DNA of 64,000 bases from a virus (Duplodnaviria; Caudoviricetes), in the IMG/VR virus record IMGVR_UViG_3300020045_002727, positions 1 to 64,000 of that record; one strand, 5' to 3'. The translations under genes were made by a program, and so were the position numbers. Of this stretch, positions 20,912-61,289 are shown one piece after another. The notes beneath the pieces are model-generated. The model made no database searches, had not been told where the DNA came from, and saw nothing but the letters and a program-made list of their open reading frames with translations. How positions within the stretch are numbered: the first letter of the stretch is position 1; the number at the start of each line of letters is the position of its first letter.

Positions 20912-21818
20912 ACTCAATCTAAAGAACGTGGTGTTCTTTGATATTGAAACGGTAGCATTATACGATGAACTACCAGAAAACTCACCAACATGGGATGCTT
21001 GGCAATACAAGATGGAACGTGAAGGTAAGTCAACCGAAAACCTAAAAGAATCTTACAAGAAAACAGCAGCATTATACCCAGAGTTCTCGAAGGTAGTTTG
21101 CATCTCCCTTGGTAGGATAAAAGGTAACAAGTTAAACCTTAAATCATATTATGGTGAAGAGAAAGTATTACTGCAGGATTTTACCGATGATTTGAATTTA
21201 GTTACAGATTCAATACCTAAAACAGTTTTATGTGGTCAGGCTATCATTGGATTTGATGTACCATTCTTGTTTAGACGTTGTTTAGTTAACGGTATTCAAC
21301 CACATGATTTATTGGATGTATCTGATAAGAAACCATGGGAGGTGTTGGATACAATGATTGATACAAATGTCTTATGGAAAGGCACTGGTTTCAATGGTGC
21401 TTCGCTTATTGCAATTGCTAACGCATTCGGTTTACCATCACCAAAAGATGATATTTCTGGAGCTGATGTTGGTAGAGTGTTTTATTCAGAAGGTGAAGCT
21501 GGTTTGAATCGTATAGTAACTTATTGTGAGAAAGATGTACTAGCTGTTGCAAATGTTGTTAGGAAGTGTAGATTTGAAGACATTTTAGAACCTGTTCATT
21601 CAATTGATGATAGTGAAGAAGCGTTTGAGAAGCAACCATTGATTATAAGCCTTTTTAACGGGGGTGCGTTCAATGAAAAACAACAACAGGAGTTAACAGA
21701 CCTTTATAATAAATGTAGCGATAAAACAGCCGCTATGATTGTTCTGGAAGCTATGACATCTACAGCAAAAGGTAAAATAACAAAAGTAACAAAAGCATGG
21801 CTAAAGACACTAAAATAA
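20895..21818 (+). CDS. PolB-type 3'-5' exonuclease-like protein
   Basis: FFDIETV, GFDVPFL, YCEKDV. Confidence 0.8.
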   Translation: MKVLNKLNLKNVVFFDIETVALYDELPENSPTWDAWQYKMEREGKSTENLKESYKKTAALYPEFSKVVCISLGRIKGNKLNLKSYYGEEKVLLQDFTDDLNLVTDSIPKTVLCGQAIIGFDVPFLFRRCLVNGIQPHDLLDVSDKKPWEVLDTMIDTNVLWKGTGFNGASLIAIANAFGLPSPKDDISGADVGRVFYSEGEAGLNRIVTYCEKDVLAVANVVRKCRFEDILEPVHSIDDSEEAFEKQPLIISLFNGGAFNEKQQQELTDLYNKCSDKTAAMIVLEAMTSTAKGKITKVTKAWLKTLK

Positions 21819-22447
21819 TCCTACCAAGGAAAGATGAGAATGGTGAGTATTACATCTCTTACTCTCAACTTACAACATGGAAGAAAAGTAAAAGGGATTA
21901 CATCAGGCAGTATTTCTTCGGGGATAAATTTGAAGGTAACTCTTACACTGATTTCGGGGGAGATATTGGTGAAGCATTAGAGAATAATGATTTCTCTGAT
22001 TTCACAGCCAAGGAGAGAGCATTCTTAGAAACTATCCCACGTTATGACCAATTTGAACGTAAAATCAGATTGGAATTAGATGGATTCTATGTCATGGGAT
22101 TCATAGATACGAATACAGCTGACTTTAAACACATCATGGACTACAAAACTGGTGATATGGGTAAAGAATCAGAGTATGACAATGATAAGTATTACCAATT
22201 AGAAATTTATGCAATGGGGCTGGAGCAAGAGACTGGAATCTTACCAGAGACTGCTAAAGTAACATTGATTGAAAGAACTGGTAATGCTTTCCAAGGTGAG
22301 GAATTAAAACTAGGTACTAAATTTATTCAGATTGACAGGTCATTAGACCCGTTTAGATTAGAATATGTTAAAGCTGATGTAATTAAAATTGCTCATGAGA
22401 TTTCAGATTGTTACAAAACATTTTTAACATTGTGTGGAAATGAGTAG
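21797..22447 (+). CDS. PD-(D/E)XK exonuclease (RecB/Cas4-like)
   Basis: ISYSQL, GFID...IMDYKTG, QLEIYA. Confidence 0.8.
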   Translation: MAKDTKIILPRKDENGEYYISYSQLTTWKKSKRDYIRQYFFGDKFEGNSYTDFGGDIGEALENNDFSDFTAKERAFLETIPRYDQFERKIRLELDGFYVMGFIDTNTADFKHIMDYKTGDMGKESEYDNDKYYQLEIYAMGLEQETGILPETAKVTLIERTGNAFQGEELKLGTKFIQIDRSLDPFRLEYVKADVIKIAHEISDCYKTFLTLCGNE

Positions 22448-22620: not shown

Positions 22621-22651
22621 TTGGAGGGTATTAAAATTTATTATATCTTTG
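22621..22651 (+). promoter_or_regulatory. promoter of tRNA array 1
   Basis: TTG at 22621, TATCTTTG at 22644-22651, 20-nt spacer. Confidence 0.78.
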
Positions 22652-22858: not shown

Positions 22859-22946
22859 CTAGGTGTGAAGGCAATTGGAAGCCGACTCGTTTTGGAAACG
22901 AGAAGTAGTTAATAGCTCAATGCAGGTTCGAGTCCTGTCACTTAGA
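22859..22946 (+). tRNA. tRNA-Pro(TGG) with long variable arm
   Basis: Acceptor CTAGGTG/CACTTAG, CTCGT-TTTGGAA-ACGAG, ~19-nt variable region, T arm GCAGG-TTCGAGT-CCTGT. Confidence 0.85.
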
Positions 22947-22955
22947 CAATATTTT

Positions 22956-23027
22956 GCTCCCATCGTCTAGCGGTTAGGACATCAGGTTTTCGACCTGAGA
23001 ACGAGGTTTCGACTACCTCTGGGAGTA
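22956..23027 (+). tRNA. tRNA-Glu(TTC)
   Basis: GCTCCCA/TGGGAGT, TCAGG-TTTTCGA-CCTGA. Confidence 0.9.
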
Positions 23028-23072
23028 CATAGAGATACTTAGCCTTTAACTCTTTAAAAAGCAAGGTACTTT

Positions 23073-23231: not shown

Positions 23232-23313
23232 GCTGATGTGAGTTAAAAGCGAATGGCAGAGCATCTCCCCTTAGAAGGGAGGACTTTTGAGGGTTCAAAT
23301 CCCTCCAACAGCA
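23232..23313 (+). tRNA. tRNA-Leu(TAG), atypical (short variable region, enlarged D region)
   Basis: GCTGATG/CAACAGC, CTCCC-CTTAGAA-GGGAG, GAGGG-TTCAAAT-CCCTC. Confidence 0.75.
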
Positions 23314-23318
23314 CTACT

Positions 23319-23667: not shown

Positions 23668-24168
23668 ATGATTAGAAATTCAAAACAAGTAGAGTTAACA
23701 AAATTAGCTTATAATAAAGGATATAGAGTTTTAGAAAATGGAGATGTGATAGGACTTAGAGGTAAGAAATTAAATCTTTTTGAAAACAGTAAAGGATATT
23801 ATTGTTTCACTATAAGAAGAAAAGATAAATGCCCTACTTATACATTTGTTCATAAATTAAAAGCCTATCAATTATTTGGAGATGAATGTTTTAATGAAGG
23901 AATTGTAATTAGACATTTTAATGGTAACAATAAAGATAACTCAGATATTAATATTAAAATTGGAACTCAATTTGATAACATGATGGATATGACACCATTA
24001 CAGAGAAAGTTAAATGCGAGTAGTCCTATTCATAATCATTCTGAAATATTGAAAGATAGAGAATCTGGAATGACATATAGAGAAATACAAGAAAAATACA
24101 ATATTTCATCTAAAGGAACAATTAGTTTTATTGTAAACAAATCAATGAAGAAAGAAAAACTAAAATAA
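23668..24168 (+). CDS. HNH homing endonuclease inserted in the tRNA array
   Basis: FVHKL, IRHFNGNNKDNSDINI..GTQFDN HNH-like core; C-terminal HTH. Confidence 0.8.
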   Translation: MIRNSKQVELTKLAYNKGYRVLENGDVIGLRGKKLNLFENSKGYYCFTIRRKDKCPTYTFVHKLKAYQLFGDECFNEGIVIRHFNGNNKDNSDINIKIGTQFDNMMDMTPLQRKLNASSPIHNHSEILKDRESGMTYREIQEKYNISSKGTISFIVNKSMKKEKLK

Positions 24169-24180
24169 ATGTTAAAATAG

Positions 24181-24211
24181 TTGCAAGGTAATATTTTTTG
24201 ATATATCTTTG
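24181..24211 (+). promoter_or_regulatory. promoter restarting the tRNA array after the HNH gene
   Basis: TTGCA at 24181, TATCTTTG at 24204-24211, 20-nt spacer. Confidence 0.8.
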
Positions 24212-24222
24212 TACCATAATAT

Positions 24223-24306
24223 AGCGAGGTAGTCAGTAGATGGTAGCTTGTGAGGCTCATAACCTCATGTCGAAAGACCCCGTGGGTTCGAGTCCCACTC
24301 TCGCAA
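24223..24306 (+). tRNA. tRNA-Met(CAT), initiator-like, with long variable arm
   Basis: A1.A72 mismatch, TGAGG-CTCATAA-CCTCA, variable arm GTC-GAAA-GAC. Confidence 0.8.
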
Positions 24307-24311
24307 CAAGA

Positions 24312-24482: not shown

Positions 24483-24556
24483 GCCTTAATAGCTCAGTCG
24501 GTTAGAGCATCTCATTTGTAACGAGAAGGTCGTAGGTTCAAACCCTACTTTTGGCT
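24483..24556 (+). tRNA. tRNA-Thr(TGT)
   Basis: Loop TTTGTAA; acceptor GCCTTAA/TTTTGGC with two T.T mismatches. Confidence 0.85.
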
Positions 24557-24640
24557 CTATTTTAGAAAACATTAATCCTATGGTCGGATGTGAGAACCAT
24601 ATAGCCGTATTTAAAAAACTCACAATGTTTTCTAAAAGAG
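24555..24640 (+). ncRNA. uncharacterised pseudoknotted RNA
   Basis: 14-bp closing stem TTTTAGAAAACATT/AATGTTTTCTAAAA; inner TATGGT/ACCATA hairpin whose loop can pair with CTCAC and CCG. Confidence 0.6.
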
Positions 24641-24642
24641 TA

Positions 24643-24755
24643 AGCTCGATTAGTGTAATGGTAACACGCAGCAAATCCCAGCTGAAAGAGAGTCATAGAG
24701 TAGAAATAATCACTTTATGATGAAACATAACAGGTTCGATTCCTGTATCAAGCTC
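24643..24755 (+). ncRNA. tRNA-Gly-derived tRNA-like RNA with aberrant anticodon loop and ~45-nt insertion
   Basis: GCTCGAT/ATCAAGC plus U73, GTGT/ACAC D stem, CAGC-AAATCCCA-GCTG, extra 9-bp hairpin, perfect T arm. Confidence 0.7.
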
Positions 24756-24802
24756 AAATCGATTGGTTGTGATGACGAGGAGGTCGATGCCTCAATTACA
24801 AT

Positions 24803-24874
24803 CGTGTGTTCGTCTAGTGGTCAAGGACGGTGACAAGTGCGTTGCAAACATGGGTTCAAATCCCATACACACAT
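24803..24874 (+). ncRNA. tRNA-shaped RNA with 6-nt anticodon-position loop
   Basis: GTGTGT/ACACAC acceptor, GTCTAGTGGTCAAGGAC D arm, GTGAC-AAGTGC-GTTGC, ATGGG-TTCAAAT-CCCAT. Confidence 0.7.
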
Positions 24875-24880
24875 CAAATA

Positions 24881-24981
24881 GTCTATTAATAAAAGTTATA
24901 TCAATGACACATAACAACGTGATTAACTTAGGATATGAGAATGTAAGTTCTCCACATAGTAAACCGATAAAATTAATAGAC
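24881..24981 (+). ncRNA. uncharacterised multibranch RNA
   Basis: GTCTATTAAT/ATTAATAGAC closing stem; inner AAGTTA/TAACTT and GAGAA/TTCTC hairpins. Confidence 0.45.
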
Positions 24982-24985
24982 ATAT

Positions 24986-25058: not shown

Positions 25059-25062
25059 CAAA

Positions 25063-25161
25063 GGGAGATGATAGCGATTTTGGGAAAGGTGAGTTGACTC
25101 CTCATCCGTATTCAGGTTGCCACCATGCAACTGGTGCTGAGTATGTAGCTACATATCTCCC
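25063..25161 (+). ncRNA. uncharacterised GC-rich junction RNA
   Basis: GGGAGAT/ATCTCCC closing stem; GTGAG/CTCAT and TATTCAG/CTGAGTA plus GTTGC/GCAAC arms. Confidence 0.55.
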
Positions 25162-25168
25162 CTATTAG

Positions 25169-25242: not shown

Positions 25243-25432
25243 CAAAAAGTCAGGGTAACACCTGATTTAATTTTAAGTATTAATGTAAAAAAATTTACAG
25301 TTATGTATAGTAAGATAATTAAAGGTAAGAAAGTTAAAACTATAAAGTATTCTAAACCATACAGTAGTAGTCAACTATCAGCAATGATGGAATTAACTGA
25401 TATATTTGAACGTAAAATAAAAAAGCTCAGAA

Positions 25433-27757: not shown

Positions 27758-28588
27758 ATGAACCATAAACAATACGTAATAGCCGACCTCCATTTCAGCC
27801 ATTTAAACATGGCTTTAAAACGAGGTTTCTCCTCAGCCGAGGAACACGACCAGCACATCATCGATAGATGGAACAGTGTGGTTAAAAAGAAGGATACTGT
27901 TTGGATTCTAGGTGATGTCACCATGGAGAAAAAATCTCCGTATGACCTTCTGGATAAACTAAACGGTTACAAGAAAGTTGTACTAGGGAATCATGATGAT
28001 GGTAATCACATTCCAGAATTATTGAAACATGTCAATTCGGTTTGTGGAATGGTTAAGCACAAAGGATTTTTGTTAACACATTGTCCAGTCCATGAATCAC
28101 AATTAGAAAGGTACGATGCAAACATACACGGACATGTCCATGAGAACTCTTTAGAGGACTTTAGATACATTAATGTGAGTGCAGAGGTATTAGACTATAC
28201 CCCAGTGGAAATTGATGCCTTAAAAGAAGTATTTTTACCAATTCCGAATTATGAAGGATTGTATGAAGTTTCTAATCATGGGAGGGTTAAGTCACTTGCT
28301 GGTAAAAACGAAAAGATTTTAAAGAATCGTACTGGCGGTAATACAAAATATCAGGCTGTAATTTTAAGTAAAAATGGAGTTCCTGAAAGCTGCCGAGTTC
28401 ATTCATTGGTTGCTAAAGTTTTCCTTGGTCATACTCCATGTGGACACGAATTAGTGATAGACCATAAGAATAGTATTGCTACGCATAATTACCTTTGGAA
28501 CTTACAGATTATAAGCCAGAAGGAGAATGTTGAGAAGATTAAGAGGCTCGGGAAGGACGGGTATATGAAAATTAATTCTAAATATTAA
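27758..28588 (+). CDS. calcineurin-like metallophosphoesterase fused in frame to NUMOD4-HNH
   Basis: ADLHF, LGD, GNHD, HCP, HGHVH; then IPNYEGLYEVSNHGRVKS, VHSLVA..F, IDHKN...NLQIISQKEN. Confidence 0.85.
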   Translation: MNHKQYVIADLHFSHLNMALKRGFSSAEEHDQHIIDRWNSVVKKKDTVWILGDVTMEKKSPYDLLDKLNGYKKVVLGNHDDGNHIPELLKHVNSVCGMVKHKGFLLTHCPVHESQLERYDANIHGHVHENSLEDFRYINVSAEVLDYTPVEIDALKEVFLPIPNYEGLYEVSNHGRVKSLAGKNEKILKNRTGGNTKYQAVILSKNGVPESCRVHSLVAKVFLGHTPCGHELVIDHKNSIATHNYLWNLQIISQKENVEKIKRLGKDGYMKINSKY

Positions 28589-61108: not shown

Positions 61109-61113
61109 TTTTG

Positions 61114-61198
61114 CAGAAAGTAAAGGTCTCGAACCCTATGCGAATAAACGCACCACAATCTTAGCAGGATGTGCTGACACCTAGTCAGTCTACTTTCT
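61114..61198 (-). tRNA. tRNA-Ser(GCT)
   Basis: AGAAAGT/ACTTTCT, loop CTGCTAA, variable arm GTGCG/CGCAT; imperfect anticodon stem. Confidence 0.82.
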
Positions 61199-61203
61199 AT
61201 TTG

Positions 61204-61289
61204 CAGAAGATAGAGAAATCGAATCCCCATCAGGTACTACCCGATGCCATGGGGTTCAAGCCCACTTTGTCACCTTGACGGTATCTTCT
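61204..61289 (-). tRNA. tRNA-Ser(TGA)
   Basis: AGAAGAT/ATCTTCT, GTGGG-CTTGAAC-CCCAT, long variable arm. Confidence 0.88.

Follow-up and report, generated by a model that had tools for sequence, protein, structure and literature searches.

A tRNA look-alike encoded by this phage at 24803-24874 on the plus strand folds as a complete 72-nt cloverleaf with a body of the tRNA-Glu type, and in place of an anticodon it carries a 6-nt loop that excludes ordinary decoding. We tentatively read it as a maintained, processed, non-decoding mimic that would occupy a protein reading the tRNA body, an explanation that we consider credible but somewhat short of probable. The stretch analysed, called the window below, covers the first 64 kb of an IMG/VR record that is complete at 74,135 bp and has direct terminal repeats. 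The look-alike is built as follows.

24803-24874, plus strand: the whole tRNA look-alike, tRNA positions 1-73 (Rfam RF00005, minimum-energy fold and ARAGORN -ps80)
24803-24809 with 24867-24873: acceptor stem CGTGTGT/ACACACA, six pairs and a C1.A72 mismatch
24812-24829, plus strand: D arm and G26, with U11-A24 and U13.G22, Glu-type (sequence reading)
24830-24845, plus strand: anticodon-arm hairpin with a 5-bp stem and a 6-nt loop
24846-24849, plus strand: 4-nt variable loop AAAC with A46 and position 47 absent (sequence reading)
24850-24866, plus strand: canonical T arm ATGGG-TTCAAAT-CCCAT (sequence reading)

The D arm proper (24812-28) has a 4-bp stem and the loop AGTGGTCAA, which contains the GG pair of bases, with U8 before it and G26 after it. 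In the anticodon arm the stem GTGAC/GTTGC pairs 24830-34 with 24841-45, two of the pairs being G.U, and closes the loop AAGTGC (AAGUGC in the RNA) at 24835-40, which has neither U33 nor a purine at position 37. The discriminator is a T at 24874 (U73). An earlier note on this DNA had described a cloverleaf with D-loop GG and a perfect T arm, a wobble-rich anticodon stem with a 6-nt loop and a C1.A72 mismatch, and reading the sequence position by position bore out each of these. Overall, 20 of the 21 stem pairs hold and the minimum-energy fold is exactly the cloverleaf; the folding energy itself is not unusual for the composition (z-score only -1.4). With lax filters the Rfam tRNA model RF00005 aligns full length (model positions 1-71) at 36.1 bits, above its gathering score of 29 bits (E 1.9e-7 for the genome) and above the scores of two tRNAs of the same phage that ARAGORN does call (32.2 and 29.0 bits). 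The gene was missed by a whole-window cmscan and by default ARAGORN, and at the 80% threshold ARAGORN reports it as 'tRNA-?(Thr|His)(gt)' with a 6-base loop. The look-alike is a real feature, well beyond chance.

The look-alike is not a decoder. A decoding tRNA has a 7-nt loop with U33 and a purine at position 37, none of which the AAGUGC loop offers, and the earlier claim that no anticodon can be read here holds. With position 38 counted as absent, position 33 is A and position 37 is C; if one base is added at either end of the loop, position 33 is still A. No single insertion yields U33 followed by three bases and a purine, and the loop stands at least three changes from any working one. All 17 scored invariant or semi-invariant positions of the body (U8, A14, R15, G18, G19, A21, Y48, G53, U54, U55, C56, R57, A58, Y60, C61 and Y11-R24) are canonical and both loop invariants are lost (Fisher p=0.006), a comparison that is biased, since decay of the body would have kept a look-alike from being noticed at all. 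Reading the GUG in the loop as a tRNA-His anticodon was rejected for want of G-1:C73, positions -1 and 73 both being T, and reading C1.A72 as an initiator feature was rejected for an anticodon stem without the three G-C pairs and for the lack of CAU.

In the laboratory, tRNAs whose loop size has been changed can cause frameshifts, and ARAGORN does draw the gene as a tRNA with a 6-base loop. It is nevertheless highly improbable that this RNA serves a phage recoding site as a doublet-reading or frameshifting tRNA, or through an 8-nt loop made by opening C31-G39. Neither register supplies U33 or a purine at 37, there is no complete amino-acid identity set (the Glu anticodon and acceptor pairs are absent), and the loops of the other six-base-loop look-alikes described below share no sequence; no recoding site was noticed in a search that was not systematic.

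The body points clearly to one family. The tRNA-Glu type shows in the D arm, the 4-nt variable loop and the T arm but not in the acceptor stem, anticodon arm or U73 discriminator. The identity set for GluRS, reportedly laid out by Sekine et al. in 1996, includes U11-A24, U13.G22 with A46, and the absence of position 47. The look-alike has this whole core, which we take to be the 'augmented D helix' of tRNA-Glu identity; it lacks the Glu anticodon UUC/CUC with A37 and the acceptor pairs G1-C72 and U2-A71. Canonical tRNA-Glu of bacteria, archaea and phages thus shares with it the D arm, A46 without position 47, G26 and the T arm, but has G1-C72/U2-A71 where the look-alike has C1.A72/G2-C71 and a U discriminator, and UUC or CUC with U33 and A37 where the look-alike has a 6-nt loop without any of these.

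Pattern searches gave the same assignment. The D arm plus AAAC at the right spacing occurs in one other IMG/VR contig (L040), where it belongs to a normal tRNA-Glu(CUC) whose T arm is nearly the same. In a collection of 185,579 cellular genomes, one per species, the D arm, AAAC and T loop together gave 35 matches, all of them normal tRNA-Glu(UUC/CUC) genes of DPANN archaea; these carriers of the exact D arm, variable loop and T loop are Nanoarchaeota, Woesearchaeota and Pacearchaeota (L042-L076). There was no bacterial match and no short-loop form in these genomes, and the search therefore gives no clue to host or donor. Since 36 of 36 body matches elsewhere, in IMG/VR and the genomes together, are tRNA-Glu genes, the body is Glu-type, and the look-alike, judged by its sequence, is Glu-derived. 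The phage also has an ordinary tRNA-Glu at 22956-23028. Descent from this gene, from tRNA-Ala or tRNA-His, or from the syntenic tRNA-Val was rejected, with global identities of 35-50/72 and no shared arms. An attP-type tRNA fragment was likewise rejected, the cloverleaf being whole and no bacterial tRNA matching.

The gene lies in a tRNA cluster, in a unit marked out by the following elements.

24203-24211, plus strand: ATATCTTTG, a putative promoter -7 box of Bacteroidota type heading the unit (exact-copy count)
24875-24879, plus strand: 3' trailer C-A-A-A-T after T73 of the look-alike
24875-24985, plus strand: structured spacer from the look-alike to tRNA-Arg(UCU), with a 10-bp terminal helix (inverted repeat I5), z -3.0
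25247-25268, plus strand: terminator-like hairpin and T run closing the unit after tRNA-Met

Exact copies of ATATCTTTG number only three in the 64 kb, at 22643, 23523 and 24203, all on the plus strand, and each stands at the head of one of the cluster's three tRNA blocks. ATATCTTTG fits TAnnTTTG, the -7 promoter consensus of Bacteroidota, and the three copies are likely to be -7 boxes of this type, with promoter action presumed from the sequence. A PD-(D/E)XK nuclease gene at 21797-22447 has as its only cultured relatives genes of the Cellulophaga phages phi38:1, phi40:1 and Calle_1-3 (Pervagoviridae), at 50% amino-acid identity; the nuclease relatives and the promoter boxes indicate marine hosts of the Flavobacteriia type for this phage. 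The third block runs from the box at 24203 through tRNA-Met, tRNA-Asp, tRNA-Thr, an 86-nt hairpin, a Gly-derived look-alike, the look-alike at 24803-24874, tRNA-Arg(UCU) and tRNA-Met to the terminator. Because the look-alike lies between the box at 24203 and the terminator at 25247, it should be co-transcribed with the five normal tRNA genes (Met, Asp, Thr, Arg and Met) of the unit.

Its 3' trailer has the same form, N73-C-A-A, as that of the real tRNA genes of the phage. Among the 20 decoding genes C74 is present in 20 and A75 in 16, A-A is usual, and none encodes CCA; T73 occurs in only two. The longer TCAAAT stands behind three of three non-decoding look-alikes (the Gly-derived one, the one at 24803-24874 and a sealed-anticodon one listed below) and behind none of the 20 decoding genes (p=0.0006, in a post hoc test). 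In relatives, TCAAAT also follows a conserved odd tRNA-Met and a tRNA-Ser. An exclusive look-alike mark was accordingly rejected: the tail is exclusive within this genome, yet given its place behind tRNA-Met and tRNA-Ser in relatives it is a variant of the family trailer and not a private mark.

Three inter-tRNA spacers (24555-24642, 24875-24985 and 25060-25168) form closed folds with terminal helices of 8-17 bp and z-scores of -3.9, -3.0 and -2.1, and the starts of the look-alike, Arg and second Met genes are spaced regularly at 183 nt. These closed, structured long spacers and the regular spacing are what might be expected if the tRNA shape only recruited RNase P and 3' processing, freeing the spacers (24756-24802 and 24875-24985) or the neighbouring tRNAs. 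We regard such a punctuation role as very unlikely, because real tRNAs on both sides already give cleavage sites, relatives do with short spacers and no look-alike, and the spacers show no conservation by blastn in phage records.

The cluster holds further irregular genes. A class-II shape is combined with a class-I anticodon in a tRNA-Pro(UGG) of 89 nt (22859-22947), and a class-II-shaped tRNA-Met(CAU) of 85 nt (24223-24307), with the arm GTC-GAAA-GAC, is conserved in two relatives (G004 and G006); relatives also have long-armed tRNA-His, tRNA-Glu and tRNA-Gly. A second tRNA array holds, on the minus strand, tRNA-Ser(GCU) and tRNA-Ser(UGA) (61113-61198 and 61203-61289), which were found only by ARAGORN at 80% and were missed by default ARAGORN and by Rfam at the gathering score. 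A 13-nt repeat occurs at 24720 and 24904. An HNH homing-endonuclease gene (23668-24168) occupies the Ile-Gly-Met slot, where relatives have tRNA-Gly, and a phosphoesterase fused to another HNH domain is encoded at 27758-28588.

Several different look-alikes are present in this one phage.

24644-24754, plus strand: Gly-derived look-alike (GlyX) with an 8-nt loop, a 45-nt extra arm and a TCAAAT tail
68542-68613 of the full record: sealed-anticodon look-alike with a TCAAAT tail
23232-23314: tRNA-Leu(UAG)-like gene with an aberrant, enlarged D region

In the Leu-like gene the anticodon loop, T arm and acceptor are normal, and Rfam covers its positions 9-63 at 18.4 bits; the tRNA-Leu(UAG) of a sister phage is likewise called truncated. 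The earlier note had counted three tRNA mimics, the third a minihelix near 2017. That there are several different ones stands, the minihelix is weak (13.1 bits, E 0.4), and the set is larger than listed, with the sealed-anticodon RNA and the Leu-like gene added. One small phage can evidently hold several different look-alikes with a common tail.

We searched for homologues of the look-alike and of its locus. By blastn, the 431-nt gap and the 91-nt gene gave matches only at the level of the T arm among 50,697 GenBank phage records. Three look-alike-specific patterns returned from IMG/VR nothing or a normal tRNA-Glu alone, and the one match to a JGI metagenome pattern fell by chance within a coding sequence and lacked a T arm. 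Aligning nuclease homologues yielded 24 IMG/VR loci as relatives, with tRNA clusters in G001-G004 and G006; the best sister phage has only 68% identity in a neighbouring protein. Closer nuclease relatives come from Logan assemblies (P0002-P0006), of which P0002-P0004 and P0006 are 66-79% identical, the highest value being that of P0002, encoded on a 28-kb contig. The five clusters share the order ...Ala, Lys, Ile, Gly, Met, Asp, Thr, Val(UAC), Arg(UCU), Met, from which Ala, Lys, Gly and Val are missing in this phage. The slot of the look-alike, between Thr and Arg(UCU), is held by tRNA-Val in the sister phages G001 and G002; here it holds the hairpin, the Gly-derived look-alike and the look-alike at 24803-24874, which resembles none of the relatives' tRNAs. 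No orthologue was found in G001-G004, G006 or any collection searched. A lack of conservation was one of the two findings that the earlier note named as refuting its reading, and it is what the available relatives show. At the locus level the look-alike is an orphan in a rearranged spot, which fits a by-product of cluster shuffling.

The relatives carry many tRNA fragments and low-scoring tRNA-like pieces. In G003, five copies of ACTTACAA (L077 4860-5520, minus strand) each stand before a tRNA or tRNA fragment within 600 nt, and one 118-nt tRNA of the same contig has an insert of ~45 nt in its anticodon loop. A link of ACTTACAA to the look-alike was rejected, the motif not being enriched in the window.

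A rival reading is a relic, namely a duplicated or imported copy of tRNA-Glu type disabled in cluster shuffling driven by homing endonucleases, still transcribed and processed only through its place in the operon, functionless and due to be lost; we regard this as quite possible, though on balance doubtful. It would account for an orphan in all collections searched, for the tRNA-Val in the slot of the sister phages, for the aberrant GlyX next door with a 13-nt repeat that hints at local duplication, for the HNH gene in place of a tRNA-Gly nearby and for relatives littered with tRNA debris. The two G.U pairs and the 1-72 mismatch point the same way; a mismatched acceptor and a weak anticodon stem may be signs of incipient decay. 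A mere relic sits less well with damage that is confined to the loop, with a loop more than one deletion from a working one, with a retained 3' trailer signature common to the other look-alikes, and with the rarity with which dead DNA is kept in compact phage genomes.

Short anticodon hairpins recur in other phages. IMG/VR was scanned for the Glu-type D arm and T loop with 20-24 nt between them, the canonical spacing being 25, and 59 contigs were found to carry Glu-bodied genes with shortened (14-16-nt) anticodon hairpins. In the majority all 7 acceptor pairs and all 5 T-stem pairs form, and the 5-bp hairpin closes a loop of 4, 5 or 6 nt; the majority also lie in phage tRNA clusters, at 28-64% G+C and sometimes beside a normal tRNA-Glu. 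Three of the 59 encode CCA. About 11 have exactly 5 bp and 6 nt, with loops that share no common sequence, except that two of them read CCUCAA. The variable loop and T arm of one look-alike (L099) are identical to those at 24803-24874. Intact acceptor, D and T arms, a 5-6-bp hairpin with a loop of at most 6 nt and a place in a phage tRNA cluster define this class, and our look-alike has all of them. Its counterparts in IMG/VR have the same intact cloverleaf, the 5-bp stem with a 4-6-nt loop and the tRNA-cluster location, but share with it no loop or acceptor sequence and show no sign of common descent, making the class a heterogeneous one.

In 17 short-hairpin sequences, 94.7% of the pair cells are standard and all five pairs of the anticodon stem change on both sides; covariation among separately arisen look-alikes may be inherited from working ancestors. 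A Glu-bodied gene is kept in a GC-rich lineage (L095, L105, L113, L115, L126, L102, L111, L127, L138, L129, L086 and L136), usually between tRNA-His and tRNA-Gln and often with no normal tRNA-Glu in the flank. Its acceptor, D and T arms are nearly invariant and its 5-bp hairpin with a 5-6-nt loop varies with compensation, which in these alignments looks like maintenance of a non-decoding hairpin. That the design persists with compensatory changes in other phage lineages argues against a relic. As a control, canonical spacing was found in at least 118 IMG/VR contigs, and because this count is only a lower bound no ratio of short to canonical forms can be given. A second control body, AGCTCAG...AGAGC, which is commoner, was searched with shortened spacing and gave ~100 truly short hairpins among the matches listed. 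This control is shortened as well, which makes short hairpins a general trait of phage tRNA-like genes rather than a peculiarity of Glu; a Glu-specific enrichment was rejected, and the lack of specificity is what a generic process of decay or mutation would give, in favour of a relic.

For a maintained mimic speak the Rfam score, a minimum-energy fold that is the cloverleaf, defects confined to the loop and the near-complete set of stem pairs, as well as the place between promoter box and terminator, the 3' trailer, the recurrence of the design with paired and covarying stems in other phages, and the 6-nt loop of phage T5 RNA3 described below. Against it stand the lack of a homologue, the tRNA-Val in the slot, a rearranged stretch beside an aberrant tRNA and an HNH gene in a phage that has lost its Ala, Lys, Gly and Val tRNAs, the unremarkable folding energy, and a phage genome in which no RtcB, Ro60 or CCA-adding enzyme was found. 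On this reading the promoter at 24203 would drive a transcript joining the look-alike to Met, Asp, Thr, Arg and Met; the RNA would be excised by host RNase P and 3' processing as its neighbours would be, given CCA by a host enzyme and folded into the L shape. It would pair with no codon in the ribosomal A site, and it would probably stay uncharged by GluRS, since it lacks both the anticodon and the acceptor pairs that confer identity. The RNA might then occupy a host protein that recognises the tRNA body and not the anticodon, candidates being a defence nuclease that cuts tRNA or an enzyme of modification or processing, and would be one member of a small RNA set in this phage.

A bolder extension, and with it the decoy or anti-defence role that the earlier note suggested, seems unlikely to us: that at least three look-alikes (Gly-type, Glu-type and sealed-anticodon, with a U73-CAAAU tail), as part of a widespread unpublished class whose anticodon hairpins are short by design, are uncleavable body decoys against tRNA-targeting immune nucleases and shield the real tRNA pool. 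No link was found between the look-alike gene and any defence system. Were this so, it would be counter-defence by decoy rather than by replacement tRNA. More generally, if phages maintain look-alikes that have intact bodies yet do not decode, they also exploit the shape of tRNA as such, which could serve as decoy, competitor or enzyme handle, and annotation pipelines, which skipped this gene, miss a class of small RNA. The locus alone, with no relatives, is not decisive on maintenance; its value is that of another well-formed example.

Among known systems, RNAs linked to Ro60 (YrlA, resembling Y RNA) or to RtcB come with a partner gene and a YrlA match, and this phage has neither: the 74-kb genome contains no RtcB (PF01139), no Ro60/TROVE (PF05731) and no CCA-adding enzyme, and the only YrlA match (26.4 bits against a cut-off of 69) lies over real tRNAs. 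Neither phage look-alikes that have a short anticodon loop nor RNA decoys against tRNA nucleases came up in our literature searches; bacterial tRNA mimics are the subject of a recent preprint, which deals with other RNA families.

The known role of phage tRNA genes against tRNA-cutting immunity is limited to supplying functional substitutes. Rescue tRNAs have been described for T5 tRNA-Lys against PARIS, for tRNA-Tyr against retron-Eco7 PtuAB and for a phage tRNA-Thr against P2 OLD, and altered anticodon arms are the resistance determinant in them (PMC12445682, PMC11464382, PMC10264068); the terms 'decoy' and 'tRNA-like' are absent from PMC10264068. In such counter-defence, cleaved tRNAs are replaced by decoding-competent, cleavage-resistant ones with matching anticodons (PMC12445682, PMC13056530). 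Rescue tRNAs resemble our look-alike in being phage-encoded, clustered genes, but they keep the anticodon of the target and restore decoding; as the look-alike does not decode, this published route is closed to it.

The nearest annotated analogue is RNA3 of phage T5 (T5s07, NC_005859 33877-33949), a 73-nt RNA annotated as a 'putative tRNA-like RNA' in a record that lists RNA1 and RNA2 as 'tRNA-like stable RNA with unknown functions'. Its locus in the set analysed here is the following.

L382 6878-6950, minus strand: T5 RNA3

Unlike the look-alike, T5 RNA3 has no clear D stem and an encoded ACCA end, is not Glu-type and shows no sequence similarity to it. Like the look-alike, it lies within a phage tRNA cluster by real tRNA and HNH genes and has an acceptor stem and a T arm, and in the place of the anticodon arm it too has a 6-nt loop (CAACCA), carried on a 6-bp stem.
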